57,392 bases of DNA. Source: Acidobacteriota bacterium (GTDB lineage Bacteria > Acidobacteriota > UBA6911 > RPQK01 > JANQFM01). Of the stretch, positions 11,956 to 57,392 are shown in pieces. The position numbers and the translations under genes were made by a program. The stretch is taken from positions 1 to 57,392 of the forward strand of contig JBFKLX010000005.1 of NCBI GenBank assembly GCA_041630155.1, written 5' to 3'. Every line of letters begins with the position of its first letter. Position 1 is the stretch's first letter. The notes below the pieces were generated by a model that searched no databases, was not told the origin of the DNA, and was given only the letters and a program-made list of their open reading frames with translations.

Positions 11956-12014
11956 CCTCCGCCGCAGCCCAATTGACAACCAAACCTGAGACCCAATCCC
12001 TGAGCCCCAAGTCC

Positions 12015-13321: not shown

Positions 13322-14539
13322 ATGAGCCGCCTCGGTCGGGTCCGGACTTTTCTGGGTTTGGAACGGAGCATCGTGGCCCTGCTCGTGATGGTCGTTCTGG
13401 TGGGCATGGGGGAGCGGCTGGCGGAGCGCTTCCTGCCGATCTACCTGGTGGCTCTGGGCGGCGGCGCGATGGCGGTCGGCCTGCTCAGTGCCCTGGACAA
13501 CTTTCTTTCTGCGCTCTACTCCTTCCCCGGCGGCTACCTGTCGGAACGGATGGGTACCAAACGGTCGCTCCTCGTCTTCAATCTGATCGCGATGGCGGGC
13601 TTTCTGATCGTCATCCTGGTCCCGAAATGGGAAGCCGTCATCGTGGGCGCGGTGCTCTTCTTGAGCTGGAGCGCGATCTCTCTACCCGCCACGATGAGTC
13701 TGGTGGGAAAGGTGCTTCCCAAGAACAAGCGCGCCATGGGCGTCTCGATGCACTCGATCGTGCGCCGCGTTCCCATGGCTCTCGGGCCCCTCATCGGCGG
13801 GCTCGCCGTCGACACCTGGGGAGCCGTCAGAGGAATCCGAATCGCGTTCGTGGGGGCACTGCTGATGGCCGTGGTGGCGGCTCTGGTCCAGCAGCGCTAC
13901 CTGGAAGAAGACGGGCGTCGGATCGGCATGCCGGGAGCCCTGCCGGCCCGGCCCGAAGCCAATCCCTTGCGCGTGCTTCGCACGATGCCTCCGGCTCTGT
14001 GGGACTTGCTGGTCTCGGATATCCTGATTCGCTTCTGCGAGCAGATTCCCTATGCGTTCGTTGTCATCTGGTGCATGAGCACGATTTCGGAGCCCGTCTC
14101 GGGTTTTCAGTTCGGGCTCCTGACCAGTGTGGAGATGGCGACGGCGGTGCTCATCTACGTTCCCGTTGCTTATCTTGCCGACCGCGGGACCAAGAAGCCC
14201 TTCGTCCTGATCACTTTCGTCTTCTTCACCTTCTTCCCGCTGCTCCTGCTCTACTCGCATTCTTTCTGGCCGCTGGTGGGAGCTTTCGTCTTGCGCGGCC
14301 TGAAGGAGTTTGGAGAGCCGACCCGCAAGTCTCTGATTCTGGACCTGTCTCCGGAGGGCCGCCAGGCCAGCATGTTCGGCGCCTACTACCTGGTGCGCGA
14401 CTCGATCGTGGCTCTGGCGGCCCTGGGAGGAGCGTACCTGTGGAAGGTCGGGCCGGAAGTCAACCTTGTCACCGCGTTCGGCTTCGGCCTGCTGGGAACG
14501 CTCTGGTTTGCCTGGAAGGGGCGGGACGTGAGGAGATGA
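13322..14539 (+). CDS. MFS transporter
   Basis: About 12 hydrophobic segments, with motif A variants GYLSERMGTKR and YLADRGTKK. Confidence 0.88.
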   Translation: MSRLGRVRTFLGLERSIVALLVMVVLVGMGERLAERFLPIYLVALGGGAMAVGLLSALDNFLSALYSFPGGYLSERMGTKRSLLVFNLIAMAGFLIVILVPKWEAVIVGAVLFLSWSAISLPATMSLVGKVLPKNKRAMGVSMHSIVRRVPMALGPLIGGLAVDTWGAVRGIRIAFVGALLMAVVAALVQQRYLEEDGRRIGMPGALPARPEANPLRVLRTMPPALWDLLVSDILIRFCEQIPYAFVVIWCMSTISEPVSGFQFGLLTSVEMATAVLIYVPVAYLADRGTKKPFVLITFVFFTFFPLLLLYSHSFWPLVGAFVLRGLKEFGEPTRKSLILDLSPEGRQASMFGAYYLVRDSIVALAALGGAYLWKVGPEVNLVTAFGFGLLGTLWFAWKGRDVRR

Positions 14540-14546
14540 GATTCGT

Positions 14547-16190
14547 TCAGCCCGAATTTTCGATCTGCTGCAGTAGCCGAGCCGCCAGCTGCGCGTCCGC
14601 ACGCACGAGTCGCTGGTGAACTCTCCGGGCCTCTTCCGGACGACTCGCGCGCAGATAGGCCAACCCGAGCAGGTAAAGGGTTTCTCCCTGATCGGGCTGC
14701 AGCGAATCGGCCTTTTCGAAAGCCTCGATGGCATCCTTCCAGCTCCCCGACCAGGAGTGGGCCACGCCCAGCCAGTGGAACGCCGCAGCCGACTGTGGGT
14801 CCCGCTGGCCTGCCTCTTCGAAGAGCTGCCGCGCTCTGTCCCAGCGCCCCAGCCTGGACTCCGCTTCTCCGTAGGACAGCAGCACCTGAGAAGTGCGCAA
14901 GGCGGGCCGGGCTTCCAGGGCCCGCTGGAATCGAGCAACCGCCTCCTGCCACCGCCCCAGCAGGGCAAGCGACTTGGCCTCGGCCAGCAGCAGGCCCTCC
15001 TGCAGAGTCTTTGGGTCGCCCAGGAGGTTCTTCCAGTACGGGCTTCCAGACTCCTCCAGAGACTCGACCCTGGAGGCTGCGCCGAAGGCTTCCAACGCTT
15101 CCCCGTGCCGTTGTAGAGCGGTCAACGCGTTGCCGATTCCGAACCAGGCGTAGCGGCGGCGTGAGGGCGCGAAACTGAGTCGGAGCGCCTCGCGGTAGTG
15201 GCGCAACGCCGCTTCCGGATCTTCCATCAGCAACTGTGACGTCCCCATGACCGCTTGGGAATCAGCCAGATTGGGGCGCAAGAGCAGAGAGGCACTGGCC
15301 AGCCCCAGCGCATTGCGATAGCTCTCGATCCGGAAGAATATCGCTCCCGCCAGCGCAGCAGCTTCGGCGCGACCAGGGGCGTCCCTCATGACTTGGCCGA
15401 GCCGCTCGACAGCCTCTTCGTCGTTTCCCTGATTGGACAGCACCAGAGCGGCCAGTAGATCGATCCAGGACCGATCCAGCCCGGCCGACTTCAGCTGGTC
15501 GAGCTGCTCCAAGACTCCCGGTTGATCCAGGTAGATAGAACGTCGAACTGCTTGAAACCTCTCCCAGCTCGAGGGAGGGGCGTCGCCCGGCCACATCCAA
15601 CCCTCTCCCCTCGCTACCGGCAGGTCCGCCAGATAAGCGCCCGTCAGCGCCAACCAACGGTCGGCTTCCAGCGGCAGCAAGAGCAGGCCGGCGAGTCGTT
15701 GCTGCTCGTCCAGCAAGGGAAGGCCTGGCGAAAGGCGAGCGTCGCACTGCAGCTCCAAGATCTCGCCAATCGCGGGAAGGCTGCGGACGCTGCTCAGCAG
15801 GACGGGAGCGAGCGGCCCCCCGGGTGGACTCGCCCAAAGCACCCGATTCGCCGCGGTGGCCAGCCAGGAGGTTTGTTCTCCGGGAACCGCCTGGGCACCG
15901 AGGCTCACTCCCAAAAGGCCCGAGAGGGGGTCCACCGCGACGGATCGAATCGGTATCGACTGGTCATTGGCAATGACTTCGATCCTCTCCGCCGGCAAAC
16001 CCAGGTCGACAGCGAAGAGCGCCGTCTCCGGTCTGGACAGAGCTCCCGTGTAGCGGATCGTTCGTCCTTCCGGCAGGTAAACGATCAGCGTCGCATTGGG
16101 CACGGCCCCCATTGCCGACAGTCCCGCCAGCGCGACCAGCGCCAACAACGCAGAGACCTTCAAGCTTCCGGGTTTCACGCTCGAGAGCAT
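14547..16190 (-). CDS. Exported TPR-repeat protein with a degenerate trypsin-like N-terminal domain
   Basis: Signal-like hydrophobic stretch and multiple TPR helices in the C-terminal two thirds; start codon uncertain. Confidence 0.75.
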   Translation of the reverse strand: MLSSVKPGSLKVSALLALVALAGLSAMGAVPNATLIVYLPEGRTIRYTGALSRPETALFAVDLGLPAERIEVIANDQSIPIRSVAVDPLSGLLGVSLGAQAVPGEQTSWLATAANRVLWASPPGGPLAPVLLSSVRSLPAIGEILELQCDARLSPGLPLLDEQQRLAGLLLLPLEADRWLALTGAYLADLPVARGEGWMWPGDAPPSSWERFQAVRRSIYLDQPGVLEQLDQLKSAGLDRSWIDLLAALVLSNQGNDEEAVERLGQVMRDAPGRAEAAALAGAIFFRIESYRNALGLASASLLLRPNLADSQAVMGTSQLLMEDPEAALRHYREALRLSFAPSRRRYAWFGIGNALTALQRHGEALEAFGAASRVESLEESGSPYWKNLLGDPKTLQEGLLLAEAKSLALLGRWQEAVARFQRALEARPALRTSQVLLSYGEAESRLGRWDRARQLFEEAGQRDPQSAAAFHWLGVAHSWSGSWKDAIEAFEKADSLQPDQGETLYLLGLAYLRASRPEEARRVHQRLVRADAQLAARLLQQIENSG

Positions 16191-16328
16191 ACAGCAAGAG
16201 TAGTGCATGAGTGGCAGTGCGTACGACTGCTGAGTTATCCTTGCTCTCTGGAAACTCTGGCTGGACTGGGGCGCCCGAAAGGCGCCGGCCGAGAGTCCGA
16301 CCCTACCCCACATCGAGGTCGCGAGCGA

Positions 16329-44540: not shown

Positions 44541-45437
44541 TCAATCGTAAAGCAGTTTCAGGAGCCGTCGGGCCAGGTTGGCCATGAACTCGACGGACAT
44601 CTCGAAGTGGTCTTCCAGGATGTCCAGGAAGGACTCGATGCGAATCTCGAGGATGGTGCTCTGCCTGGAGGCCTCGAGCTCGTACCAGCGGAGCCGGGAG
44701 GAGAGCGCTTCTTCCAACCCCACCAGGGCCGGTGGGCGAATCGGTGACTGCCGGGTCTGACTTCGCTGCAACAGCTCACCCGCTGTCAACAGGAGAAAAT
44801 GTTCGGCGTCGGACCCCATGGTCCACAGCTGTCGTCCGGCCTCGAGTTCCCGCGTGCGCGCATGCCGGCACACTTCCCCCAGGGCGTCGAGACTGCAGTT
44901 CTGAAACTCCGAAAGTGTGGCCAGTAGGCCGAGTTTGTCGACCAGATCGAGTCTCGCACCAAAGATTGGGTGGGTCGGTGCCTGCCTTTCCCGGGGAGCT
45001 GCGGCCTGGTCGATCACACTGATGGTCAGCGACAGCAGGTAGCGGAAATAGCTGGCCAGGATGTCGAAATGGCTCTCCCATAAGTCCAACTGGCTCTCAC
45101 CCGGGAACTCCAGCGCGAGTGTTTCCGTCTCGGCCCGGGCGGTCAAACCTTGCCCCCCCCGGGCGACCAGGTGCAAAAATCCCACCGTCTCTTCGGGGCC
45201 CAGGCGCTGAGGTTGCCCGCTCCCCCTTTGGACTTCCACTATGCCGTCCACGACGACGTAAAACGATTCCACTGGGACGCCGCTGCGGAAGAGATACTCC
45301 CCACTGGCAAAGGTGCGTTCCTTGGCGTGCCGAGCGATGCTGGCCAGGTGATCCGAGCTCAAGCCCTGGGCGGCGGGGAGGCTGCGGAGGTAAAGCACCC
45401 GCTCCAGCGGCCCGACGAACAGCACTTTATCGCGCAC
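44541..45437 (-). CDS. Tandem cyclic-nucleotide-binding (cNMP) domain protein with no DNA-binding domain
   Basis: Two repeats (LERVLYLRSLP...GEYLFRSG...FYVVVDG and VDKLGLLATL...GRQLWTMG...FLLLTAG). GTG 45437 has a GGAGG RBS and overlaps the upstream stop codon. Confidence 0.85.
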   Translation of the reverse strand: MRDKVLFVGPLERVLYLRSLPAAQGLSSDHLASIARHAKERTFASGEYLFRSGVPVESFYVVVDGIVEVQRGSGQPQRLGPEETVGFLHLVARGGQGLTARAETETLALEFPGESQLDLWESHFDILASYFRYLLSLTISVIDQAAAPRERQAPTHPIFGARLDLVDKLGLLATLSEFQNCSLDALGEVCRHARTRELEAGRQLWTMGSDAEHFLLLTAGELLQRSQTRQSPIRPPALVGLEEALSSRLRWYELEASRQSTILEIRIESFLDILEDHFEMSVEFMANLARRLLKLLYD

Positions 45438-48153
45438 CCTGACCCTCCATTCGCGAATTGGAGTCGGGCAAGTCTCCTTGGATGACCAGCGCCAAAGCCG
45501 TGGAGGCGCCACGCAGTCGCCGGCGCAAGAGGCGCTCCCAGCCTGGAATCTCCAGGTGGGCCAGCTGTCGAGCGGCCAGACAGCTCAGCATTTCTGAGGG
45601 ACTCTCCAGCAGGACCTCCAGCACCTCGCCATATTCCTCCGAGGAAGCGACACCATCTCGAAGGGTCGAATCGTCGAACAGTTCCAGGAGGGCTCCGGCC
45701 AGTGTCTTGGGGACCAGATACTCCAGCAACTCTCGACTGCCGGCCCGTGAGCTCTCCTGTTCACTCCGGAGACCCGCATAGACTTTGCGGAAGTCTTCGC
45801 TGGCATAGAGCAGGTTGAGCAACCGGAAGATCCGCTCCAGGGCGTGAATCTGCTTGTGCCGGAGCAGGTCCGCCAGGATGTCGTGAACCGAGCCGGCCCG
45901 GAGATGCAAATCGGGAGGGATGGATCCCAGTTGCCGGCGCCACTGCGAGTACGCCACGGCAGAACCGAGATTCTCGTCCAACACGAGTTGCAGAGGCTCA
46001 GCCGGAAGTTCCAGGCGGGGGTAGTCCTTGCGCAGCGCACCCAGCGCGCGCAGGATCTTGAAACGGATCATCCCGTCGCTCTCGCCCTGCAAATGTTCGA
46101 TCAGGATCTCTGCAGCGACGGTGGGTTCGAACCGCCTGACCACGGCGGGAACATGGCAACGGATGCCGTGGGGCACCTCTGGATTGCGCAGCGCGGAGTC
46201 CAGTTGGGACACGACAGCGGGGCGCAGGGCCAACAGGGCCTCGGTGACCGGGCCACGCAGCCGCCGAGTCCCCAGGAACATCAAGAGCGGCTCGAACAGC
46301 TGGGCCGTCCCCACGGCCCGCATCGCGCGGACCAGTTCGAGTGGCGCCGAGCCGCCGAGCTGGCTGCGGCACATCAGGGCCAGCAGAGGTCCAAACTCCC
46401 GCAGGGGTCGGGCCCGGATTGCTCGGGCCATGGCGCCAATGGCAGGGGACGAGTTCAAGAACCCCTGTCTCTCCACCTCTCGGAGTTGCCGGGCCGAGGG
46501 AAGGCCGTCTCTGGCGATGATTCCCACCAGCGCAGTGGCTCGAACCGCCGGAGAAGCATCTCGCCGTGCCCGGTCGAGAACTGCCTGGCTCCCTCCCCCT
46601 TCTCTCATCACGAGCGCCTGCACGGCCGCCGCGCGAATCGCCTCGTGCTCGTGCTCCACGAGGCGTTCGATTGCCGGCAGCACGTCCTCTTTGGGGTCGA
46701 CGCCCAGCAACTCCAGGGCGCGCAAAACGACGCGGGGAGCAGGATGGTAGAGGATCAGAGCCGGAATGCGCGACTCCTGACGCAATTCGTGAAGCATTTC
46801 CAGGGCCGCCAGGACTCTCCGATCGTCGGGATGATTCAGCGCCTGCAGCAGCCGGGTGAGCGATGCGGTGTCCAAGGCAGGGAAATCGATTCGCGCCTGC
46901 GAGACCTCGGACGTCAGAATTTCCCGAAAAACGCCCAGATAATGCTGCTTGACACCTGGTACCAGCAACAGCCACAGCAGTGCGGAGGCCAGGGTAAACG
47001 CGAGGAAGGTCTGTTCATCGGCGCCCACCCGAAGAGCCCCAAGAATCAGCAGCGACGCAAGGCTCTGCCCACCCCGCTGACCCAACACGTCGATCACGCC
47101 CTTGACCTGGCCTCGCACTTTTTCGGGTAGGGGAACGAAAAGCAGTTCCGTGAGCGTTCGGTGGAAGGAGTGGCGCAGCGACCCGTCGACTGCCTTGAGC
47201 GACAGGGCAGCCAGCAGTCCGCCGGCAGCCCAGAAGCCGGCACAGCCCATCAACAGCAGCCCGGGCACCACGCCCTGGCTGGCATGCACCCCCAGACGAG
47301 GCAAGAGCCGCGGCGCCACTATCAGTTGCACCAGTAAAGACGACAGGTTCAGTGCCAGATAGACGCTGGAAAAGAACTGGTCCAACTGTGCGGCTGGAAC
47401 GAATCGGTCGGCCGCACTCTTGAACAGAAAGTCCACCAGGGTGAAGGTGACCGTGGACAGGAGGATCAGGAGCCCCAGACGCCGCAAATACGGACCCGCC
47501 CAGACCTTTCGCAGCACGGCCCTCAGCTCCTCCTGGCTCCCCTCCTCCGGGGGATCCATGACCGGGCTGTTCAGATGCATGATGCGCGGGAGGGGTGCTG
47601 AGAGCAGGAGCAAGCCGGCGGACGCCAGCAGCAAATGCCGGGCGGGGAGGTAGGTGGCCAGAACCACCGCCACGAAAGACCCCAGAATCGCTCCCACGAC
47701 GCTGCCGGTGCCGATCAGCGCAAACACGTGCTTGGCCCGAGTCAGGTTGAACAAGCCACCCAGCAGAGTCCAAAATCGGACGCCCACCAAGGTCACCAGG
47801 ACACCCGACCAGACGTAGAGTGCGTAGTACACCCAGGGCCCGACCCGACCGACCATCAGCCAGAACAGCAGCGTCACCAGGCCACTGGCACTCAACCAGA
47901 GGGAAAGCTCGTTCCGGGCTGCGAACAGGACGACCAGGCGCCGGTGATATCGAGTCAGCAGCAGGGAGATCAGCGCAATGGCCAGATAGACCCAGGGAAG
48001 TTCGCTGGCGGGAAGACGAGACAAGAAGAGGCTGTCGCGGGCGGTCTCGAGAAGAGCGTGCCCCGCCATGAAGCCACCCAGGGTCAGAAAAGCTCCGGCG
48101 ACGTTGCGCTTCTCGTCTCGACTCAGATCCCAACGCCAGAAGAACACTTTCAC
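45427..48153 (-). CDS. NTT/TLC (Npt1/Npt2-like) nucleotide translocase fused to HEAT repeats
   Basis: About 12 TMs with ETARDSLFLS, FWTL...AKHVFALIG, TLVDFLFK, DGSLRHSFHRTLTELLFVPLP and KGVIDVLGQRGG, followed by ~450 aa of HEAT-like helices; probable start GTG 48153. Confidence 0.82.
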   Translation of the reverse strand: MKVFFWRWDLSRDEKRNVAGAFLTLGGFMAGHALLETARDSLFLSRLPASELPWVYLAIALISLLLTRYHRRLVVLFAARNELSLWLSASGLVTLLFWLMVGRVGPWVYYALYVWSGVLVTLVGVRFWTLLGGLFNLTRAKHVFALIGTGSVVGAILGSFVAVVLATYLPARHLLLASAGLLLLSAPLPRIMHLNSPVMDPPEEGSQEELRAVLRKVWAGPYLRRLGLLILLSTVTFTLVDFLFKSAADRFVPAAQLDQFFSSVYLALNLSSLLVQLIVAPRLLPRLGVHASQGVVPGLLLMGCAGFWAAGGLLAALSLKAVDGSLRHSFHRTLTELLFVPLPEKVRGQVKGVIDVLGQRGGQSLASLLILGALRVGADEQTFLAFTLASALLWLLLVPGVKQHYLGVFREILTSEVSQARIDFPALDTASLTRLLQALNHPDDRRVLAALEMLHELRQESRIPALILYHPAPRVVLRALELLGVDPKEDVLPAIERLVEHEHEAIRAAAVQALVMREGGGSQAVLDRARRDASPAVRATALVGIIARDGLPSARQLREVERQGFLNSSPAIGAMARAIRARPLREFGPLLALMCRSQLGGSAPLELVRAMRAVGTAQLFEPLLMFLGTRRLRGPVTEALLALRPAVVSQLDSALRNPEVPHGIRCHVPAVVRRFEPTVAAEILIEHLQGESDGMIRFKILRALGALRKDYPRLELPAEPLQLVLDENLGSAVAYSQWRRQLGSIPPDLHLRAGSVHDILADLLRHKQIHALERIFRLLNLLYASEDFRKVYAGLRSEQESSRAGSRELLEYLVPKTLAGALLELFDDSTLRDGVASSEEYGEVLEVLLESPSEMLSCLAARQLAHLEIPGWERLLRRRLRGASTALALVIQGDLPDSNSRMEGQGAR

Positions 48154-48171
48154 CAACGTGCTCCGCCCTTG

Positions 48172-48229
48172 ACAGTAGCATAGTTGCCTGAGCCAACCAG
48201 CTTGGCTGCAGAGCACTCTCTGCTAAAAT
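48172..48229. promoter_or_regulatory. Possible divergent extended -10 promoters
   Basis: TGcTAAAAT (+, 48221-48229) and TGcTACTGT (-, 48172-48180) in the 124-bp spacer between the divergent genes. Confidence 0.35.
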
Positions 48230-48277
48230 CAGGTGATGGCGAGTTCGCGCGAGTTCGCGCCGAACAGCAAGAGCACC

Positions 48278-51232
48278 ATGACTCACTCACACCGGAATTC
48301 ACATCGCACCCGTGCTGCTGCGGCTTTCGCCTTGCTAGTCGCAATCTTCATGCTGTCCGGCCGGGACGCCGCCGCCGCAATCGTGCCACGTTCCTTGTCG
48401 GCGGCCGAGGTGAGAGAGGTGCGGCAGACCCTCGAAAGCATGAAACTGGACCCCCGAGGGCCCTATCTTCGCATTCGCTGGTTTTGCAGGGACGGCACGG
48501 TTCAACCACCCGCCGGCACCCCGTGCCGGGAGCGCGGAGGCGGGGTCCAACACGCTGAGGTGAGCCCCAAAACGCAACGCCTGGCCGAATTGGGTTTTCA
48601 GGTGGGTACGATCCTCCAGGCCCTGGATTTCGATCAGTTCTTCGACCGGGACAACGATCACCGACTGCTCAAACAGCTGGTCCTGCAGGACTATCTCGGG
48701 CAAGTCGACGATGGATGGGTTCTTCGCGAAGCTCGCTTCTACAGAGGAGCTCGACAGATCGAGGACGAGGAGAGGCAAGGCGAAGCATTCCTGCGTCAGC
48801 TCCTGGCCCAGCCCGATTGGGTCGACCGGAATTTCCTGCTGGTGTTTCAACTGGCCGCGACTCTACCCCAACCGGACTGGACCGCGGGAAGCACCGAACG
48901 AGTTCGCAATCTGGCCACGGAGATCGCCAATCTGGACCCCAACTTTCAGAATCTCCGCAGCAAGATTCACTCCTTTCCCGAAGCCACGGACATCGAGCGT
49001 GTACGGGCCTTCCTGAATTCGAAGTCTCACCCGGCCGAGACGGGTGGCCGCTTGCGGGAGCTGGTGGCAACCATGGAGAAGCAGTACGACCCCGCTCGGG
49101 TCGTGGAACTGATTCGCCGGTCGGCCAGACGCCTGCCACAGCTCGAACAGCCCTTGACCGCCTTGATCGACCAGCTAGAGAAGGGCCGGCACCGCGAGGC
49201 CTTTCTGGGCATGGCCCGACTGGCGGAGGGATTGAGACGGCAAATTGCCTCCGAGGCCCTTGATCGAGACAATCTGCACCGCCTCAACCTGCTTCGGGTC
49301 CTGCTGGAAACGGCGTTTGGACTACCCGGGGAAGACTCGAAGCGGGCCCGGGAGACTCGACTCGCCCGCATCGAAGTCTGTGGGCCGTACTTTCAATTGG
49401 CGTTCGCGGCCGGTCTGCTCACGGATCGCGAGCTGCAGGCGCAGCGCCAGGAACTCACGGAGATTCGAGAGAAGGCGCCGGCTTTGCCGGCTCTCGAACT
49501 CAGACAACACCTGGCCTATCTCAGCCGGAGCCTCGACTGGGGGCAGGCTTCCATTCGCCAGACCTTCGGCCCCGAGTTCGACCACTTCCTACGGGTCGAG
49601 CCCAAAGTCTCCGGCTTCATGGACTCTCGCGTTCGGGGCTCGATCCTGCTGCCGCTTTCGGAGGTGCTCAGCAGCCTGACCCAGGACGTGGACGAGTCTT
49701 TGAACCAGTCTCATGTTCTTTGGGACCAGCCCATCAGCCACGGCTTGCGCGGCCTCAATCCAGGAGTGGCTCGAGCAGAGCTCTCCTTGGCGCACCAGAT
49801 CGACGAGCCGGACCCCACCAAGATCTACGTGATTCCCGACACAGTGGCGGACCTGCGGCCCATGGCCGGCATCCTGACCCTGGACGCTGGAAATTTGCTG
49901 TCCCACTCGCAACTGCTGGCACGCAACCTGGGCATTCCGAACGCCTCGGTCTCCCCCGCTTTGCTGCCCAGTCTGAAAGCACTGGAGGGCCGCCAGCTTT
50001 TTTACGCAGTCTCGCCGCTGGGGCGGGTGGTCATCAGAGACCCCGGCAGACTGGAAGGCTTCGAAAAGGAGTTGATCGCGAACATCACGCGAAACGCTCC
50101 GGCGAAAATCGACCTGGACATCTCCAGGGTCCAACTGCAGCGGGTCGAGCCTTTGCCGCTGAAACAGCTGCGGCTCTCGGATTCGGGGGTAGTGGTGGGT
50201 CCCAAGGCCGCCAACCTGGGCCAACTGGGAGCGCTCTTCCCTCGTCAGGTCGCCGAAGGCGTAGCGCTCCCCTTCGGGATGTTTCACCGTCACATCGACC
50301 GCCCTTACGAGGGGAAACAGAAGCTCACCGAAGAGATCCGAGCAGCTTACGATACTTCCCGCCGGATGGCAGAGGCCGGGCGAAGCCAGGTTGAGATCGA
50401 CCGCTTCATGTTCAACCGCCTCGATTACTTCCGAAGGGCAATCCTCGAGCTGCCTTGGCTTCCCGATCTTCGCGCAATGGTGGAAAGAGCGGTCCGCAAC
50501 CTGCCCGATTACCAAAAAGGTGTGTTCGTGCGCAGCGATACCAACGCCGAAGACCTGCCGCACTTTTCGGGAGCCGGCCTGAACTTGACCCTGCCACACC
50601 GCAAGAACATGGAGTCGATCCTCGGCGGGATCAAGAGGGTATGGGCATCGCCGTTCAGCGAGAGGGCCTATCTGTGGAGGAGGGAGATCCTGAACTCGCA
50701 GGAAAAAATCTTTTGCTCCGTACTCCTGTTGCGCAGCGTTCCCAGCGCCGAGTCGGGAGTGCTGATCACCGCCGGCCTGGAGGCCGGGGAGGCCGACAGC
50801 CTCACTGTCGTCACGGCGGAAGGGGTGGGTGGAGCGGTCGACGGCCAGAGCGCTGAAACCCTGTCGATCCTGCCGTCGGGTGAGACCAAACTGCTCTCTT
50901 CCGCCAAGGCCCCTTATCGAAGAGGGCTCAGCGAAACCAGCGAGGGCGTCGAGATCCTGCCGGCCCGGAGAGACCAGTACCTCCTGAACGAGGCCAAGAT
51001 CCAGCAGCTCCAACGGGCCGTCCAGCGTTGGATGGCAACCCTCTCGGCTCAGCAACGCGGCCTGGTTTGGGACATCGAGTTCGGCTTCGTGGACGGCAAG
51101 CTCTGGCTCTTTCAAATCAGGCCTTTCGTCGGACACCTCAACACACGTATCATGGAGGTTTTGCGGGAGTACGATCGCGACCTGCTCGAGGCGGGTCAGC
51201 GAAAAATCTCCCTGGAGGAACCTTCTTCTTGA
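48278..51232 (+). CDS. Signal-peptide-bearing dikinase-like protein: helical N-domain, phospho-His swivel domain, C-terminal PPDK-type ATP-grasp
   Basis: Leader RTRAAAAFALLVAIFMLSGRDAAA; TLDAGNLLSHSQLLARNLGIP; GPKAANLGQL, FVRSDTNAEDLPHFSGAGLN and DIEFGFVDGKLWLFQIRP; no PEP/pyruvate TIM barrel. Confidence 0.85.
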   Translation: MTHSHRNSHRTRAAAAFALLVAIFMLSGRDAAAAIVPRSLSAAEVREVRQTLESMKLDPRGPYLRIRWFCRDGTVQPPAGTPCRERGGGVQHAEVSPKTQRLAELGFQVGTILQALDFDQFFDRDNDHRLLKQLVLQDYLGQVDDGWVLREARFYRGARQIEDEERQGEAFLRQLLAQPDWVDRNFLLVFQLAATLPQPDWTAGSTERVRNLATEIANLDPNFQNLRSKIHSFPEATDIERVRAFLNSKSHPAETGGRLRELVATMEKQYDPARVVELIRRSARRLPQLEQPLTALIDQLEKGRHREAFLGMARLAEGLRRQIASEALDRDNLHRLNLLRVLLETAFGLPGEDSKRARETRLARIEVCGPYFQLAFAAGLLTDRELQAQRQELTEIREKAPALPALELRQHLAYLSRSLDWGQASIRQTFGPEFDHFLRVEPKVSGFMDSRVRGSILLPLSEVLSSLTQDVDESLNQSHVLWDQPISHGLRGLNPGVARAELSLAHQIDEPDPTKIYVIPDTVADLRPMAGILTLDAGNLLSHSQLLARNLGIPNASVSPALLPSLKALEGRQLFYAVSPLGRVVIRDPGRLEGFEKELIANITRNAPAKIDLDISRVQLQRVEPLPLKQLRLSDSGVVVGPKAANLGQLGALFPRQVAEGVALPFGMFHRHIDRPYEGKQKLTEEIRAAYDTSRRMAEAGRSQVEIDRFMFNRLDYFRRAILELPWLPDLRAMVERAVRNLPDYQKGVFVRSDTNAEDLPHFSGAGLNLTLPHRKNMESILGGIKRVWASPFSERAYLWRREILNSQEKIFCSVLLLRSVPSAESGVLITAGLEAGEADSLTVVTAEGVGGAVDGQSAETLSILPSGETKLLSSAKAPYRRGLSETSEGVEILPARRDQYLLNEAKIQQLQRAVQRWMATLSAQQRGLVWDIEFGFVDGKLWLFQIRPFVGHLNTRIMEVLREYDRDLLEAGQRKISLEEPSS

Positions 51233-52518
51233 TGTGCGTGCGCACCTTCATTCGATCGATTCTGCTGCTGGGGATGTTCGTCTCGGTCACTGCTGCCCTC
51301 CCCGGGTATCCGCTGGACGGATACGTACACACGGGCATCCGCCGCCTCAAGGCCTACGACCTCATCCAGCAAGGCAAGCTGGCCGGGCATTTCCGCCTCC
51401 AGCCGGGCGCTCTGCTGGGCAGCGACCGGATCCTGCTGCGCCTGGCCGACACCAATCCCGATTTCGACATCTCGCCGGCCTCCCAGCCCGACCCAAACCT
51501 GCAGTCGGCCTTGGACAAGTTGTTTCAGTCGCGTGACCAGTCCTATCGGGCGGCGGTGCTGGACATCACCGATCCTGCTCAACCGCGCTACGCTCAAATC
51601 CGGGGCGACCAAGGCTACATTCCCGGCAGCGTGGGGAAGCTGTTGGTCATGACGGGGTTGTTCGAGCAGCTGCGCCTCCGTCATCCCGGTGAGATCGAAA
51701 GCCGGGAAAGGCTCCTTCGCGAGACCCAGATCGTAGCGGACCGATTCGTCATTCCCAACAGCCATGCGGTCCCGGTGGTGGGTCCCGACTTCACCTCCAT
51801 CGTGCATCGCTCGATTCAGATCGGGGATCGCTTCAGCCTGTGGGAGTGGCTCGATCACATGATCTCCCCCAGCTCCAATGCCGCCGCGTCCATGGTGTGG
51901 AAGCAGGCCCTTCTGATGGACGCTTTCGAAGCGGGATACCCGATCAGCCCGGAGAGAGAAGCCGCCTATCTGGCCAGCACGCCTGGCCAGCAGCTCAGCG
52001 AACGTGCCATCGAAGTGATTGAGACTCCTCTCCGGAGGGCCGGCCTCGATCCGGAGAGCTTCCGTGTGAGAACGTTCTTCACGGCGACTGCTTCACGAGC
52101 CATTCCCGGAAAATCGAGCACCTGCACCCCGAACCAAATCCTGCGCTGGTTGATCAAGCTGGAACAGGGCCGGCTGGTCGACCGCTGGAGCAGTCTCGAG
52201 ATGAAGAAGCTCATCTACTTCACTCGCCGCCGCTACCGTTACGCCTCCGCCCCGGCACTCAACCGCGCCGCTGTCTTCTTCAAATCGGGCTCCCTCTATC
52301 GCTGCGCCCCCGAGGAAGGCTACAAATGCGTCCAGTACCAGGGCAATGTGGAGAACTTGATGCATTCGGTCGCCATCGTGGAGTCTCCGCGAGAGAATGC
52401 GCCTCCCCTGGTCTATTTGGTCTCAATCATGTCGAACGTGCTCAAAGTGAATTCCGCTCAGGAGCACCAACGACTCGGTGCCGAGATCGAGCGTCTGATC
52501 CAGCAGCGGAATTCTTAG
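51232..52518 (+). CDS. Exported class-A beta-lactamase-fold serine hydrolase
   Basis: TGATG overlap with the dikinase; signal peptide; SxxK (GSVGK), SxN (SSN) and KSG motifs. Confidence 0.82.
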   Translation: MCVRTFIRSILLLGMFVSVTAALPGYPLDGYVHTGIRRLKAYDLIQQGKLAGHFRLQPGALLGSDRILLRLADTNPDFDISPASQPDPNLQSALDKLFQSRDQSYRAAVLDITDPAQPRYAQIRGDQGYIPGSVGKLLVMTGLFEQLRLRHPGEIESRERLLRETQIVADRFVIPNSHAVPVVGPDFTSIVHRSIQIGDRFSLWEWLDHMISPSSNAAASMVWKQALLMDAFEAGYPISPEREAAYLASTPGQQLSERAIEVIETPLRRAGLDPESFRVRTFFTATASRAIPGKSSTCTPNQILRWLIKLEQGRLVDRWSSLEMKKLIYFTRRRYRYASAPALNRAAVFFKSGSLYRCAPEEGYKCVQYQGNVENLMHSVAIVESPRENAPPLVYLVSIMSNVLKVNSAQEHQRLGAEIERLIQQRNS

Positions 52519-52543
52519 AAATTTGAGGTCGAAAAGCATTCCT

Positions 52544-53500
52544 ATGAAATCATTCCTTGTCCTCACTTTGCTTCTGTCTTGCCTCGTCGCTTTTGCGCCG
52601 GCAGGGCCAGCCCAATCGTCCCCGTCCCGTTCTCTGGTGCTTCCGCCTCCGGACCCCGAGCTGCAGGCGGGCCTGGATGCAGCTCTGGACCAGCCGCCGT
52701 TTCGCAAGTTGATCCGGCAGGGACGCCTCTCGGTGGCGCTGGTGGATTTGTCCAATGGCGAACTGAGGTTTTCCGGAGTCGACCAGGACAAGATGCGCTA
52801 CGCCGCCAGCCTGCCCAAGATTGCCGTGCTGCTGGCGGTCTTCGAGGAAATCGATGCGGGAAGACTGGAATACACTCCGCAGCTGCAGAAGAGCCTCGCG
52901 CGGATGATCCGATTTTCGAGCAACCGGGCGGCCAGCGATCTCATCGCTTTGGTCGGCTTTGAGAGGATCGCTGAGATCCTCCGCGATCCCGCCTACGAGC
53001 TGTACGACCCCCGGCGCAAGGGCGGCCTCTGGGTCGGCAAGGACTACGGGGGGAGTCTGGGCCGCTGGAAGCGTGATCCGCTGAACCAGATTTCGCACGG
53101 GGCGACCGCGCGCCAGGTGGCTCGCTTCCTGGTCATGCTGGAGGAGGGATTGCTCGTCAGCCCCCGAGCCAGTCAGCAGATGAAGGAAATCATGTCCCAG
53201 CCGGGGATCCGTCACAAGTTCGTCAAAGGACTGGCCTCCCGGCCGGATGCCAAGATTTTCCGAAAATCCGGATCTTGGAGGGATTGGCATTCGGATGCCG
53301 CCATCGTGGAGGCGAAAGGGCGCAAGTATGTGGCTGTGGCCCTGATGGAGAGCTCTGCAAAGAATGTCCTCTCACGCCTCATCGTGGCGTTGGACGACCT
53401 GATCCAGGCCGAAAACCAGGAACAGTTGGCCGCCTCTGGCGAGAAGCAGCCGGCCGTGGATCTGCTGGCTCCCAAGGTGGCCGCCTCGCCGATTCCTTGA
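52544..53500 (+). CDS. Exported class-A beta-lactamase-fold serine hydrolase
   Basis: Signal peptide MKSFLVLTLLLSCLVAFAPA; SxxK (ASLPK), SxN (SSN) and KSG motifs. Confidence 0.85.
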   Translation: MKSFLVLTLLLSCLVAFAPAGPAQSSPSRSLVLPPPDPELQAGLDAALDQPPFRKLIRQGRLSVALVDLSNGELRFSGVDQDKMRYAASLPKIAVLLAVFEEIDAGRLEYTPQLQKSLARMIRFSSNRAASDLIALVGFERIAEILRDPAYELYDPRRKGGLWVGKDYGGSLGRWKRDPLNQISHGATARQVARFLVMLEEGLLVSPRASQQMKEIMSQPGIRHKFVKGLASRPDAKIFRKSGSWRDWHSDAAIVEAKGRKYVAVALMESSAKNVLSRLIVALDDLIQAENQEQLAASGEKQPAVDLLAPKVAASPIP

Positions 53501-53566: not shown

Positions 53567-54838
53567 CTACGACCAGCGCTCCGTCAAGTACGGTTTTTCG
53601 GTTTCGAAACCGTCGCAGAGCTGTTCGATCAACTTTTCGGCTTCATAGGTCGGCATATCTCGGGTCTCTCGTACGAAGGAGCCGGTCCGTCCAAAGTAGA
53701 GAGGCACCATGGAGAGCATGACGCGATCCAGCGTCTCCTGCGACTTGTCGGATCGATGGTACGCCAGGGCGTAGTCCCAGACTACGCGGATCCAGGTTTG
53801 GCCTGGAAAGTCGAATCTCGAGGTGGGAAGCTTCGCAATTGCGGCCAGTTCCCTGAGTCGCTCAGCGGGCAGGAACGAGCCCAGGAACTCGCGATTCTCC
53901 TGAAACCCGGCCCGGAATCGTGCGACCATCGCCTCCAGGTCGACTCGAATCTCCTCCGGATACACTTCCGACCGGAAGCCGAAGAGCGCCGTGGGGCGAC
54001 TCTGCTCCACCCGTTGCCACTTGTCCTGGTAGCGCTCCATGAGGCGAAACATGGTTCCGATGACTTGCTGGAACATCGGGCCCAGCGAATGGGAAGGATC
54101 TTTGGCGTCATGAATCTTGGCGCCGAGGAAGGCTTGACAGATCCGGTAGCCCTCGCAGATAGCCTTGGTGCTCATCCAGATGTCGATGCCGTAGCGAGCG
54201 ATATCGGTACCCCAGATGTCGCGGGACAGGTAATGCTCGGCCAGTGCTCCGGAAAAGCCGAAGTCGCCTCCAATCGGCTGGCGCATCCGGACACCATAGA
54301 GCGATCGAGTGACCGGATAAATGATGCTGTTGGTGATGGTGCCGTCGTATTTGTAGCGAGAATACCAGGGCGCCACGAAATCATAGCCCTTGAGCAGGAT
54401 CGGGCCGGCCAGCAGCTCCACCCATTCGGGTGTGATGCTGCGAAGATCCGAGTCCACGACCAGGCAGGCTTTGGCGCCAAGGCGGACGGCCACTTCGAAG
54501 ATCGTGTGAAAGGCGCTCCCCTTCCCGGGCATGCCATGATAGGGGGTGACCAGCTTCTGAGCGGGGCGCACTTCGTGCTGGATCAGAATCGTATCCATGT
54601 CCCCGTAGACCGCCGTCCCTTCGACAATGTGCCTGGTCTGGTCGGTGGAGCCGCCATCGGAGTTGACCAGCACGGCCTTTTGTCGAGGAAAATACTTGGC
54701 CAGTCCGTACTCCACGGCCCGAACCACGTGCCGGATCGTCACCTCGTTGTTGAAGCTGGGTATACCGACGACGATGTCGGCGGTCGTGATCTGCTCGACT
54801 TTGAGCTGCGTTTCGTGTGAAAGCACCGTTTCTTGCAT
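53567..54838 (-). CDS. GT-A glycosyltransferase, glucosylglycerate/mannosylglycerate synthase-like
   Basis: VGIPSFNNE, NSDGGSTD, PGKGSA, VDSDLRSI, RQPIGGDFG and YGIDIWMS motifs; start moved to ATG 54838. Confidence 0.8.
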   Translation of the reverse strand: MQETVLSHETQLKVEQITTADIVVGIPSFNNEVTIRHVVRAVEYGLAKYFPRQKAVLVNSDGGSTDQTRHIVEGTAVYGDMDTILIQHEVRPAQKLVTPYHGMPGKGSAFHTIFEVAVRLGAKACLVVDSDLRSITPEWVELLAGPILLKGYDFVAPWYSRYKYDGTITNSIIYPVTRSLYGVRMRQPIGGDFGFSGALAEHYLSRDIWGTDIARYGIDIWMSTKAICEGYRICQAFLGAKIHDAKDPSHSLGPMFQQVIGTMFRLMERYQDKWQRVEQSRPTALFGFRSEVYPEEIRVDLEAMVARFRAGFQENREFLGSFLPAERLRELAAIAKLPTSRFDFPGQTWIRVVWDYALAYHRSDKSQETLDRVMLSMVPLYFGRTGSFVRETRDMPTYEAEKLIEQLCDGFETEKPYLTERWS

Positions 54839-54879
54839 GATTTTATGACTGTCTGGAGGAGCCCCTGACGATCTCTCCC

Positions 54880-56115
54880 TCAACCGAGTGAACGGGCGGC
54901 AATCCAACTCCCGGCCAGGAAAGTGCCCAGGACGCTGCCGATGTTTGAAAATGCCACGACGAGCAGGATGCGGCTGGCCGGATTGCTCCAAAAGCCTTTC
55001 ACGTTGGTGATGGCTTCCGGGAGCGCCTCCAGATCGTCCACTGTGGGCTTCTTGACGAACGCCTGAACCAGGCCGCTCACCCAACCGGCCGCCATCAGTG
55101 GGTTCAGGCTGGTCAGCGGGGCCGCCAGGAAAGCCGAGAGCACGCTGAGTGGGTGGCCCCACGCCAGGGCGGCTCCCAGGGCACTCAACGAGCCGTTGAC
55201 GGCGAACCAGATCCAGATGGATCGGATCGACTCCTCCGCACCCCGGGTGAAGAATCCGTACACCAACAGGCCTACGATCAGAACCGGAATACCCCACTGC
55301 AGGAGCTTGGGGAAGAACGCCGATTGGGGCAGGGCCTCCAGAGGCTCCAGCGGATGGTCGCGGAAGATGGCCTCTCGAATGCCGGCCACGTGCGCGGCGC
55401 CGACCGGGGCGACGATCTTCCCGCCTTCGGCCTGGCGCAGCTTTTGAGCCATGTAGACGTCACGCTCAACCACCAGTGTTTCTTTCAAGGCTGGAAACTC
55501 GACGGCCAGCATCTGCAGAGCGTCCTGGATGTTCTGGTGCTGCTTCAATTCCTCGATGATGCGTTCGTCGACCTCTTCGTCAATGAAGAGGCTTCCGAGC
55601 AGATGGAACACCATGCGCAGTTTGTCTTTCCAACCCAGGCGTCTCCAAGCTCGTTTCAGTGTGGTCTGAATGTCCCGATCCAGCAGCTCCAAGCGCATGT
55701 CGTTGGCCTCGGCCAGCCGAATCGCTTCCGCCATTTCGGCACCCGGCCGCACCCCCAGACGATCCCCGATGCGCCGCTGGAACGACGACATGATCAGCGA
55801 GGCCAGGAGCAGGAGCGCCTTGCCCTCCCGCACCACCTTGACGACATCCGTTTTCTTCCACTCCCGGGCGCGCTTCAGGTTGACGTAACGTGCCTGGCAC
55901 AGCTCCACACACACCGTGTCGGGCCGGACCGCCTCGATCACGCGCGCGACCTCATCGACACTCTTTTGAGAAACGTGGGCAGTGCCGACCAGATAGACCT
56001 CTTTGCCCCCCAGCCGAATCAGCTGCACCGAATCGGGCAGTTCGGGCAAATCGCTTGCCGGCTCGGAGACTGGACTGGCCATCTCGGGGCGATCGTCCGG
56101 AGGACTGTGTGACAT
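54880..56115 (-). CDS. TraB/PrgY/GumN-family membrane protein
   Basis: LVGTAHVS, PDTVCVELC, RPGAEM, ERDVYMA and VGAAHV motifs, plus C-terminal TMs. Confidence 0.92.
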   Translation of the reverse strand: MSHSPPDDRPEMASPVSEPASDLPELPDSVQLIRLGGKEVYLVGTAHVSQKSVDEVARVIEAVRPDTVCVELCQARYVNLKRAREWKKTDVVKVVREGKALLLLASLIMSSFQRRIGDRLGVRPGAEMAEAIRLAEANDMRLELLDRDIQTTLKRAWRRLGWKDKLRMVFHLLGSLFIDEEVDERIIEELKQHQNIQDALQMLAVEFPALKETLVVERDVYMAQKLRQAEGGKIVAPVGAAHVAGIREAIFRDHPLEPLEALPQSAFFPKLLQWGIPVLIVGLLVYGFFTRGAEESIRSIWIWFAVNGSLSALGAALAWGHPLSVLSAFLAAPLTSLNPLMAAGWVSGLVQAFVKKPTVDDLEALPEAITNVKGFWSNPASRILLVVAFSNIGSVLGTFLAGSWIAARSLG

Positions 56116-56327: not shown

Positions 56328-57008
56328 TCAGACCGAATCACTCTCTTTCCAAAGGGAAACCTCGGACAGGGATTTACGCCTCAGGTCGGGCACTTTTGCG
56401 TCCCCAGCCGGAAAGCCAATCGGAAAGAGTATGTAGGGCCGCTCATTCCTGGGACGCTCCAGCAACTCACTGAGAAACCCCATGGGGCTCGGCGTGTGCG
56501 TCAGCGTCACCAACCCCATGTGATGCAACGCCACGATGAAAAGCCCGCAAGCGATGCCCACGCTTTCCTGCACATAGTAGTTTTTTCGCCTGCTGCCGTC
56601 CGGATTGCGGCCGTGCAACTCCGCGAACACGACGACCAGCCAAGGGGCGGTTTCCAGAAAAGGCTTCCTCCAGGTCGTACCCAAGGGTGCCAGGGCCTCG
56701 AGCCATTCCGGAGGCATGCGGCCCTGATACGAAATCTTCTCCTCTTTTTCGGCTGCGATTCGGATTTGTCGTTTCAGGCTGGGATCGCTGACGGCCACGA
56801 ATCTCCAGGGCTGGCGGTGGGCGCCCGAAGGAGCTGTGGAAGCGGTCCGGATCGCCAGCTCGATCAACTCACGGGGGACGGGATCGGGAGCCAGGTCGCG
56901 AACGCTGCGGCGACCGTCCATTTCTGCGTAGAAGGAGCGCGCCCTCTCCAGCATCACAGCCTCGGGAAGAGGTTCGTGTCGCAAGGGTATGAACGGGTAT
57001 TTCGTCAT
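56328..57008 (-). CDS. Iodotyrosine deiodinase-like flavoprotein (nitroreductase superfamily)
   Basis: RRSVR, TAPSGAHRQPW, AEKEEKISY, LAPLGT..RKPFLE, YYVQESVGIA and LTHTPSPM motifs; start ATG 57008. Confidence 0.85.
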   Translation of the reverse strand: MTKYPFIPLRHEPLPEAVMLERARSFYAEMDGRRSVRDLAPDPVPRELIELAIRTASTAPSGAHRQPWRFVAVSDPSLKRQIRIAAEKEEKISYQGRMPPEWLEALAPLGTTWRKPFLETAPWLVVVFAELHGRNPDGSRRKNYYVQESVGIACGLFIVALHHMGLVTLTHTPSPMGFLSELLERPRNERPYILFPIGFPAGDAKVPDLRRKSLSEVSLWKESDSV

Positions 57009-57130
57009 GCTTCGAGGCTCCTTCGCGCCCGCTGACTGCCAGGGAGCCCGCCTCTGCGCACTCGGCTCGCGCCAACGAGGCGCCAGGCGTTGCATCTCGG
57101 CAGCCCAAAAAAGCTGGAGAACCGGCCCTG

Positions 57131-57392
57131 CTATTCGACGGTCACCGATTTGGCCAGATTGCGCGGCTGGTCGATCTCGCAACCACGCAACAAGGCAATA
57201 TGATACGCCAGCAACTGGAGCGGAATCGCGGTCAGCAGCGGTGTGAACAACTCGTCACAGGCCGGCACCCCAAGGTAGGCGTCGCTCAATTGTGCCAGCT
57301 CCGGATCGCCTTCGGTCCCCACACTGATCACGGGTCCGCGGCGGGCTTTGATTTCCTGCACGTTCGAGAGCATTTTCCGGTAGGTCGAATCG
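57131..57392 (-). CDS. glmS: Glutamine-fructose-6-phosphate aminotransferase, 3' end
   Basis: Invariant C-terminus IPLQLLAYHIA..RG..IDQPRNLAKSVTVE. Confidence 0.96.
   Translation of the reverse strand, partial: DSTYRKMLSNVQEIKARRGPVISVGTEGDPELAQLSDAYLGVPACDELFTPLLTAIPLQLLAYHIALLRGCEIDQPRNLAKSVTVE

Follow-up and report, generated by a model that had tools for sequence, protein, structure and literature searches.

The 57,392 nt stretch of DNA analysed here, hereafter the window, comes from an Acidobacteriota bacterium (positions 1-57,392 of contig JBFKLX010000005.1 in assembly GCA_041630155.1), and its region 44541-53500 contains five genes arranged in two divergent units (Table 1). One unit encodes a carrier of the NTT/TLC type with HEAT repeats and a protein with two cyclic-nucleotide-binding (cNMP) domains, and the other encodes a dikinase with a signal peptide followed by two serine hydrolases of the beta-lactamase fold, referred to below as BL1 and BL2. 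The dikinase very probably forms one functional unit with BL1 and BL2 and, in the majority of lineages, with the carrier. In the reading that we favour, drawn from sequence, ATP is brought into the periplasm by the carrier and used there by an exported dikinase working together with BL1 and BL2, and we put the probability of this at about 0.5. Export of ATP had been suggested for this DNA in an earlier note, and the signal peptides, the recurrent adjacency of the genes and the homology of the carrier speak for that interpretation; the link between carrier and dikinase is not universal, which speaks against it.

The gene set occurs in soil and sediment bacteria. A collection of 88 related loci was assembled, eight from named genomes and 80 from metagenomes (the best of 561 confirmed matches), which together with the window makes 89 sources, and the gene set is found again where the dikinase is only 34-52 % identical to that of the window, which is more than chance would give. 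Unsupervised clustering of the ORFs from all 89 sources recovered the dikinase in 86, BL1 in 62, BL2 in 47 and an NTT-like protein in 30, with the next family (panB) reaching 8, and tblastn searches with the window proteins agreed that only these four families recur. With a hidden Markov model (HMM) of the carrier, an NTT-like gene was found in 36 of the 88 loci. Many of the contigs are short, and a well-flanked set of 21 loci was defined, with at least 2.5 kb upstream and at least 7 kb downstream, in which BL1, BL2 and a carrier were found in 20, 16 and 13 loci, respectively, the carrier within 8 kb. The adjacency to an NTT-type gene that had been remarked on in the window is, thus, not peculiar to its genome. 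As the carrier HMM finds exactly three NTT-like ORFs in the 5.7-Mb genome from which the window comes, the likelihood of such an adjacency arising by chance is approximately 1 %.

The position of the carrier gene varies among loci. It lies upstream of the dikinase and divergent from it in the window and in loci L001-L003, L025, L026 and L093, where the gaps between the two genes are 75-280 nt. In L008 and L034, a gene for a single NTT-HEAT-cNMP protein is convergent and follows BL2. Many sediment loci have the order dikinase, BL1, BL2 on the opposite strand and then a plain carrier of 420-480 aa, and in L082 and L099 the carrier is found between BL1 and BL2.

Trees were built for the carriers (34 rows, IQ-TREE in quick mode) and for the dikinases (84 rows, FastTree), both midpoint-rooted and without topology tests. 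The dikinase-adjacent carriers are spread over five or more deep clades, which have support of 99-100 and stems 0.74-1.9 long, and include plain (about 430-480 aa), HEAT-fused and HEAT-cNMP-fused types, with the two non-adjacent paralogues of the window genome nested among them. In the dikinase tree, adjacency to a carrier is found in four of the five major clades. The dikinases of L008 and L034 nest (support 99) among those from loci with an upstream HEAT carrier, and their own carrier lies across the deepest split in the carrier tree; hence, one carrier lineage appears to have been replaced by another.

The catalytic half of the dikinase is recognizable. Pfam PPDK_N (PF01326) matches residues 654-965 of the 999-aa frame (E 9e-25, 88 bits, cut-off 27), and PEP-utilizers matches residues 535-569 of this frame below the threshold (16.2 bits, cut-off 23.1). 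In a profile search of the PDB, phosphoenolpyruvate (PEP) synthase 8a8e was matched at E 9.5e-29, with dikinase residues 700-965 aligned to its ATP-grasp domain (chain 99-376) and residues 484-563 to its His domain (chain 384-466), where TSH of 8a8e lies over LSH of the query, and every chain returned at E <= 0.01 bears the name phosphoenolpyruvate synthase. An AlphaFold model of the dikinase (pLDDT 87.6, pTM 0.86) compared with the PDB using Foldseek matched 2ols (2.9e-12), rifampin phosphotransferase (RPH) 5hv1 (1.2e-11) and HpeI 9goj (1.2e-10), and the top eight matches, spanning about 334-361 alignment columns, are PEP synthases or ATP-grasp-type phosphotransferases. In an alignment of 42 members (A1), the phosphohistidine motif G-N-x-L-S-H-x-Q-L-L-A-R has invariant G538, N539, L541, S542, H543, Q545, L546, L547, A548 and R549, and R752, S753, D754, T755, N756, E758, D759 and L760 in the nucleotide site, which aligns to R-S-S-A-T-A-E-D-L of 8a8e, are also invariant, as is a Cys pair, C70 and C83. 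Because the ATP-grasp and His motifs are invariant in 42 divergent sequences, catalysis appears to have been retained.

The likeness to PEP synthase, pyruvate phosphate dikinase (PPDK), RPH and HpeI is confined to the ATP-grasp and swivelling phosphohistidine domains with their catalytic motifs. Relative to 8a8e the order is permuted, the His domain preceding the ATP-grasp domain in the window dikinase and following it in PEP synthase. Unlike PEP synthase and RPH, the window dikinase also has a 445-residue N-terminal helical domain and a conserved signal peptide, and is without the PEP/pyruvate- or rifampin-binding domain. No PEP/pyruvate-binding TIM-barrel domain was found by Pfam, and the best NCBIfam score for PEP synthase was 94 bits vs 883. 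None of the module proteins in the window falls into a named NCBIfam equivalog, all scores being far below the cut-offs.

The best 120 homologues of the dikinase (884-1027 aa, 45-62 % identical) are from Gemmatimonadota and Acidobacteriota, and are named in their sources only as 'hypothetical' or 'PEP/pyruvate-binding domain-containing protein'. A signal-like N-terminus, identified using a crude rule that is not SignalP (hydropathy >= 2.0 over 12 consecutive residues within the N-terminal 70), is present in 93 of the 120 and in 0 of 120 when an internal control segment is used. Export of the dikinase had been proposed from the single protein in the window, and the family is consistent with this. 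The hydrophobic segments of the homologues typically end in AxA-Q, and a signal-like N-terminus was also found in 103 of 120 BL1 homologues. Each of the three window proteins concerned (dikinase, BL1, BL2) has a single hydrophobic segment, at its N-terminus. No twin-arginine motif was seen in the window dikinase or in the homologue N-termini listed and, hence, export would be via Sec, with the protein unfolded and without bound nucleotide. A role for the N-terminal segment as an anchor facing the cytoplasm was considered and rejected, since the segment has basic residues before it and AxA-type endings after it, the fold of the co-operonic BL proteins is extracytoplasmic, and the dikinase and BL1 contain conserved Cys pairs.

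The N-terminal domain of the dikinase, which we presume to be a substrate-binding or phosphoryl-acceptor domain, was used alone as a phmmer query against 1.84 billion representatives, and 504 matches at E <= 1e-3 (50 %-identity clusters) were obtained, 231 of them at E <= 1e-30. In the AlphaFold model, this domain is mostly helical over residues about 40-475. Among the 150 matches listed, its start is always in the N-terminal ~100 residues and most often at 20-60, the proteins (<= 1051 aa) are mostly about 980 aa or are shorter fragments, and no other architecture was found. Foldseek against the PDB returned dikinase, D-Ala-D-Ala ligase and other ATP-grasp-type enzymes, none of which suggests a fold for this domain. 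The ESM Atlas gave leads below 0.9, to 'hypothetical protein' clusters that partly include PEP-utilizers and are probably fragments of the dikinase family.

Some further matches to the dikinase family differ from this form. In 35 genomes of a 401-genome sample of the phylum, frames of ~630-750 aa match only the His and ATP-grasp domains (profile ~474-634 to ~944-968; examples are G209:C2:104494-105819, G374:C2:764049-765374 and G107:C6:30321-31685), and these may represent a shorter dikinase family that has the permuted order and no N-terminal domain. The match at G080:C6:40457-43378 contains two in-frame TAG codons, which may reflect a damaged gene or a misassembly. At L079:8345-12490, the dikinase match is limited to residues 354-930 and continues straight into same-strand matches to NTT-HEAT (391-861) and cNMP, BL2 lying upstream in the opposite orientation; this contig may be rearranged or chimeric.

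The window carrier matches Pfam TLC (PF03219; 27 bits, cut-off 21) and HEAT_2 (E 1.1e-9), with a weak match to MFS_1. It is built of an NTT/TLC-type domain of the major facilitator superfamily (MFS), residues about 1-440, followed by C-terminal HEAT repeats. All of its hydrophobic segments lie within residues 49-401, with none in the HEAT domain, which by MFS topology should face the cytoplasm. A profile of 15 dikinase-adjacent carriers, including that of the window, matched solved ADP/ATP carriers (9j3n, E 6.3e-36; 9j3j, E 2.6e-29) over profile positions 114-428, and all six neighbour carriers that were sampled are above the Pfam TLC cut-off (21.1-78.6 bits). In the 323-aa partner, Pfam cNMP_binding matches two stretches (E 1.1e-19); this protein has no hydrophobic segment and is predicted to be cytoplasmic. 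Homologues with 37-40 % identity are in the same position in L001-L003, and in L008 the cNMP domain is fused to the carrier (1078 aa).

In many genomes of the phylum sample, two NTT-like genes lie head to head, 66-128 nt apart, in frames of about 920-980 and 1230-1270 aa (e.g. G153:C30:2393-5082, G291:C24:11754-14405, G186:C1:256265-258926, G425:C20:65100-67753 and G217:C12:162621-165315).

BL1 and BL2 both match Pfam Beta-lactamase2 (BL1 35.2 bits, BL2 82.8 bits for the whole model; cut-off 22). In an alignment of 40 BL1 sequences (A3), S133 and K136 (SxxK), S214 and N216 (SxN), K351-S352-G353 and a Cys pair, C358 and C366, are invariant. BL1 has no relative in the PDB by sequence; its structure model (pLDDT 93.7) best matches the fold of PBP-A 2j9o/2j7v (E 1.2e-9, TM 0.72-0.73 on the target) and then that of CTX-M-14. 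BL1 proteins are named in their sources at most 'serine hydrolase' or 'hypothetical'. For BL2, the stretches SLPK, SSN and KSGS are marked as conserved among 42 homologues, and the sole PDB relative by sequence is PBP-A Tll2115 (2j7v, E 1.4e-3). The class A beta-lactamases have an R-x-E-x-x-L-N motif in the omega-loop, in which the Glu166-equivalent is the general base for fast deacylation. At this place BL2 has R-W-K-R-D-P-L-N, without a Glu at the matching position as judged by eye. The NCBIfam bla_class_A model scores 20.7 bits with BL2 (cut-off 200) and does not match BL1. The two proteins share the fold and the SxxK, SxN and KSG motifs of PBP-A and class A beta-lactamases, and BL1 differs from these in being about 160 residues longer, with insertions and the conserved Cys pair. 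Judged from sequence and models, BL1 and BL2 look like active, exported acyl-serine enzymes that resemble a penicillin-binding DD-peptidase more closely than they do a true lactamase. We know of no fixed linkage to a dikinase for PBP-A or for lactamases.

The earlier note had also raised the inactivation of an antibiotic. The genes would then be a periplasmic set in which BL1 and BL2 cleave beta-lactams and an RPH-like dikinase phosphorylates some other drug before it enters, with ATP supplied by the carrier or not. The closeness of the ATP-grasp fold to 5hv1, the presence of RPH among the weak NCBIfam matches, the catalytic motifs of both hydrolases and the resemblance of the BL1 fold to CTX-M would all suit such a role, but the RPH match is 70 bits against a cut-off of 999 (NF041857), the class A model falls short as given above, and the nearest solved relative of both BL1 and BL2 is the DD-peptidase PBP-A, not a lactamase. 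In addition, the RPH substrate domain is absent and a family-specific helical domain is found instead, and an old family with a fixed architecture down to 34 % identity suits a physiological substrate better than a drug. No specific support was found for antibiotic inactivation, which appears very unlikely.

In the mechanism that would follow from ATP delivery by the carrier, the dikinase, exported by Sec, would transfer the beta-phosphate of ATP onto His543 of its His/ATP-grasp pair, the phosphate would be passed to a substrate held by the N-terminal helical domain, with release of AMP, and that same molecule would also be the target of BL1 and BL2. The NTT/TLC-type carrier in the inner membrane would feed nucleotide to the periplasm. 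As an ATP/ADP exchanger is reversible, and ATP is high in the cell and absent outside, it should run in the export direction, and the HEAT domain and the double cNMP partner could gate it from the cytoplasm so that ATP is not lost. The likeness of BL1 and BL2 to PBP-A points to D-Ala-containing peptides, and on this ground our guess for the substrate, held with low confidence, is an envelope polymer that bears peptides, for instance peptidoglycan or debris from it. Such a polymer might then share the fate of plastid starch, which a dikinase phosphorylates and so makes accessible to hydrolases. A complex prediction for dikinase residues 36-600 and BL1 residues 25-428 (with alignments and no controls) gave a score of 0.00 and a mark of 0.32, from which we draw no conclusion.

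Several observations weigh against this reading. The carrier is missing in 8 of the 21 well-flanked loci, and not one locus of a dikinase clade with 13 members shows a carrier, five of these loci being well flanked (L028, L037, L038, L040 and L042) and some on short contigs. In the 401-genome phylum sample, a full-length dikinase was found in 11 genomes, and in the flanks retrieved for these and one more relative a carrier was found only in L114 and L118; of the 9 of 11 phylum loci without one, 4 are short contigs. NTT-like genes are widespread in the sample (185 of 401 genomes, among them 9 of the 11 that have the dikinase) and are, thus, too common for co-occurrence at the genome level to be informative. 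The window carrier itself is a weak match to TLC, and scores 29.9 bits with NCBIfam TIGR00769, where the cut-off is 387; its cargo could be something other than ATP. In the Foldseek, ESM Atlas and phmmer searches the N-terminal domain offered no hint of the substrate, and the rule used to recognize signal peptides is a crude one. ATP could leak through outer-membrane porins, and to our knowledge the classical ATP/ADP exchangers do not carry AMP, which the dikinase releases.

The co-occurrence of the trio with an NTT, which had been raised earlier as a question, is recurrent in divergent loci and not universal, the 13-member clade and 9 of the 11 phylum loci being without it. These absences, with the abundance of NTT-like genes in the phylum, would be explained if the dikinase, BL1 and BL2 were a real unit and the carrier a mere frequent neighbour, or if the dikinase had become a binding or phosphate-relay protein that no longer uses ATP outside. 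However, the adjacency involves at least five deep carrier lineages in varied positions and orientations, NTT-like ORFs number only three in the 5.7-Mb window genome, and the invariance of the ATP-grasp and His motifs points to retained catalysis, and we consider such an explanation quite unlikely.

Accessory genes are found at a few loci, some of them close relatives. A HAD IIIB acid phosphatase (E 2e-44) is encoded in five (L043, L051, L053, L062 and L070), its gene separating BL1 from BL2 in L062 and BL2 from the carrier in L070. The genes after the carrier in L043 and L053 are those for a PNP_UDP_1 phosphorylase, the phosphatase and a protein of the Metalloenzyme superfamily, which includes phosphopentomutase, and together these look as if a set for nucleoside or nucleotide salvage had been joined to the module. 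In five loci (L051:3533-5725(+), L062, L089, L090 and L095), the dikinase adjoins a gene in which a sodium:dicarboxylate symporter (SDF) is fused to a family-3 periplasmic solute-binding domain; its product may import an amino acid or dicarboxylate that has been set free. These few genes fit such uptake together with recycling of AMP via adenosine.

The salvage genes beside the carrier suit uptake as well, and so bear on an alternative in which the four genes are linked and the carrier imports AMP/ADP, another nucleotide or a phosphorylated product, the phosphate donor being environmental or leaked ATP. NTTs of known activity are, as far as is known, importers into the compartment that bears them, and a 2017 study (PMC5381601) gives background on this. 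Against uptake, an exported ATP-grasp enzyme needs a useful level of ATP and the module encodes no other source of it, exchangers are reversible and the gradients in a free-living cell would favour ATP efflux, and supply accounts more simply than uptake does for the other exported family that is linked to NTT-like genes, the kinase-like one (see below). Import by the carrier is, thus, unlikely in our view. Another alternative would have the dikinase run in reverse outside the cell, making ATP from AMP, Pi/PPi and an energy-rich phospho-substrate, for import by the carrier. PPDK is reversible. ATP import is also the activity for which NTTs are best known (PMC5381601). This arrangement would, however, leave BL1 and BL2 without a role. 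Moreover, no plausible extracellular energy-rich phosphate donor is known to us, water dikinases run strongly forward, and a reversed dikinase seems extremely improbable.

If instead the carrier supplies ATP, the closest parallel is in the plastid, where an NTT-type carrier, a dikinase that phosphorylates a polymer and the hydrolases that then act on it share one compartment. The domain order of the plant alpha-glucan, water dikinases (GWD and PWD) is presumably that of the window dikinase, namely a substrate-binding N-terminus, the His domain and a C-terminal ATP-grasp domain, and the likeness noted here is one of domain order. The SEX4 phosphatase acts in starch breakdown, and some of the module loci also include a phosphatase. 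The partners in the window differ from those of GWD in being SxxK serine enzymes and not amylases, and the compartment is the periplasm; no CBM45, CBM20 or other carbohydrate-binding module was found in the dikinase by Pfam, its N-terminal domain being helical. ATP import into the plastid by NTT for starch turnover is described in PMC8814037.

NTT-HEAT carriers and NTT-HEAT-cNBD carriers, the latter with the gene for the cyclic-nucleotide-binding domain (cNBD) downstream or fused, were listed as functionally uncharacterised by Major, Embley and Williams (2017, PMC5381601), who propose regulated uptake of ATP and name no partner enzymes. The window carrier and cNMP gene fit this NTT-HEAT(-cNBD) layout, the HEAT domain being C-terminal and the cNBD gene directly downstream, the match to the monophyletic clade of that paper being one of layout. 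The carriers described here differ in being tied to an exported dikinase module, and plain carriers without HEAT repeats serve in the same position in many loci. A similar puzzle over the source of periplasmic ATP is posed by Lig E, which is described as an ATP-dependent enzyme targeted by a signal peptide to the periplasm of Gram-negative bacteria, and which is a precedent for accepting that such enzymes exist. The fold of Lig E is unrelated to that of the dikinase, and for a ligase a single charging could in principle suffice, whereas a dikinase needs a steady supply. We know of no dedicated carrier beside Lig E.

The textbook view is that there is no ATP outside the cytoplasmic membrane and that the periplasm uses lipid-linked donors, pre-activated bonds and trans-envelope machines. 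A carrier that feeds an exported dikinase would, if true, be a different solution to the supply of energy in the envelope. The components of the module come from known superfamilies, and the module and the principle that it implies match no described system that we found. Searches of the literature turned up nothing that describes a PPDK-type dikinase acting outside the cytoplasm, this combination of genes or an NTT exporting ATP, though the supplementary trees and tables of PMC5381601 may list these carriers. ATP delivery would also be the first function for the NTT-type carriers of free-living bacteria catalogued in 2017 (PMC5381601), which are found in almost half of the sampled phylum genomes. 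The ~980-aa exported dikinase family with its new substrate domain and the conserved pair of PBP-A-like enzymes are objects that can be tested. Should the substrate prove to be peptidoglycan or some other recalcitrant polymer, the module may play a part in how cell-wall debris is turned over in soils and sediments, habitats in which these phyla are common. The parallel with plastid NTT and GWD also poses a question about evolution that can be answered by comparing sequences.

A second exported family with a parallel NTT association, unrelated to the dikinase, is represented on another contig of the window genome (C60, locus L107; Table 1), where a 541-aa protein with no Pfam family is encoded beside an Omp85-like and two NTT-like genes. 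The 541-aa family has 7196 matches at E <= 1e-5 among 8000 scored, none with a functional name, and 107 of 120 members have a signal-like N-terminus. In an alignment of the family (A4), K145, H274, D276, N281 and D302-F303 are invariant, in the contexts H-D-D-x-x-x-x-N and D-F-G, and D275, G304 and E159 are conserved in >= 90 % of the rows; the two contexts look like the catalytic loop and the DFG motif found in protein-kinase-like enzymes. Weak Pfam HipA_2 matches were obtained for 15 of 24 members (best E 1.4e-4), there were no true HipA_2 members among 61 relatives, and a PDB profile search gave only chance matches (E >= 0.19). The nearest named ESM Atlas clusters were Fam20C, HipA and PI3/PI4-kinase at 0.79-0.81, a range where chance matches are common. 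That the family may be kinase-like is, thus, a lead and not a finding. It is present in 78 of the 401 phylum-sample genomes, and the gene lies 13-582 nt upstream of a same-strand NTT-like gene in at least 9 of them (G311, G070, G396, G087, G197, G310, G339, G372 and G394), a lower bound from 150 of 394 carrier matches listed.

The two associations allow a tentative and wider proposal, that the NTT/TLC carriers of free-living bacteria as a class might be ATP exporters for periplasmic phosphorylation, on which both the dikinase module and the 541-aa family would depend, with the HEAT and cNMP parts as valves. Though possible, this is on balance not what we would expect to hold for the whole class. 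If it were true, the rule that the periplasm has no ATP would not be general, and the ATP importers of plastids and parasites would be a reversal of an older bacterial export function.

Table 1. Positions of the genes and domains described in the text. Coordinates are those of the window unless another locus is named
Feature	Position	Strand	Description
cNMP protein	frame 44541-45512	-	323 aa; two cyclic-nucleotide-binding domains
Carrier (NTT/TLC-type + HEAT)	frame 45427-48216, gene 45427-48153	-	frame 929 aa; GTG start 48153
Divergent spacer	48154-48277		124 nt between the carrier unit and the dikinase unit
Dikinase	frame 48233-51232	+	frame 999 aa; 984-aa protein from ATG 48278
Dikinase, predicted signal peptide	48278-48382	+	residues 1-35; Sec-type; basic N-region, hydrophobic core, AAAA-I ending
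Dikinase, N-terminal helical domain	48383-49717	+	residues 36-480; small Cys-containing beta element
Dikinase, swivelling phosphohistidine domain	49727-50077	+	residues about 484-600; invariant His543
Dikinase, ATP-grasp nucleotide-binding domain (PPDK_N)	50150-51172	+	residues about 625-965, C-terminal
BL1	frame 51028-52518, gene 51232-52518	+	frame 496 aa; 428-aa protein from ATG 51232
BL2	frame 52523-53500, gene 52544-53500	+	frame 325 aa; 318-aa protein from ATG 52544
L043, acid phosphatase	10097-10963	-	accessory gene; same set in L053
L043, PNP_UDP_1 phosphorylase	8978-9856	+	accessory gene; same set in L053
L043, Metalloenzyme-superfamily protein	11472-12650	+	accessory gene; same set in L053
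L107 (contig C60), NTT-HEAT	8223-11144	-	973 aa
L107 (contig C60), plain NTT-like	11721-13049	-	442 aa
L107 (contig C60), Omp85-like	13237-14568	+	
L107 (contig C60), exported protein	14576-16201	+	541 aa; no Pfam family

The flanks of the window contain amidohydrolase, arylesterase-like, GT2-like, TraB and nitroreductase genes and several ORFs without an identity. Only one flanking ORF, the nitroreductase gene at 56328-57182(-), clusters with an ORF from elsewhere among the 88 loci and the window, and it has a single partner (family f45, in L094). As no flanking gene recurs with the module, its extent was taken as 44541-53500. Directly 3' of BL2, the stretch 53567-56115(-) encodes a protein resembling GT2/glucosyl-3-phosphoglycerate synthase (NCBIfam 50 bits, below the cut-off) and a TraB-family protein (TIGR00261, 347 bits), and neither gene recurs with the module in the other loci. 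A search of sequencing runs found a match in eight DNA datasets, from marine and sediment metagenomes, and in no RNA dataset.

The first description of the five genes holds for domains and junctions alike, the ORFs, the Pfam matches, the TGATG overlap, the 25 nt gap and the 124 nt spacer all being recovered. The dikinase TGA (51230-51232) overlaps the ATG of BL1, as read from the sequence, and BL1 is predicted to be translationally coupled to the dikinase; the TAG of BL1 is at 52516-52518, which leaves the 25 nt before BL2. The spacer presumably holds the promoters of both units. The carrier ends with a TAA at 45429-45427, and the candidate starts for the cNMP gene are GTG 45512 (86-nt overlap), GTG 45437 (11-nt overlap) and GTG 45425 (1-nt gap). 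The overlapping ends originally noted for these two genes are, thus, likely, and depend on the start that is chosen, as the last of the three leaves the genes 1 nt apart.

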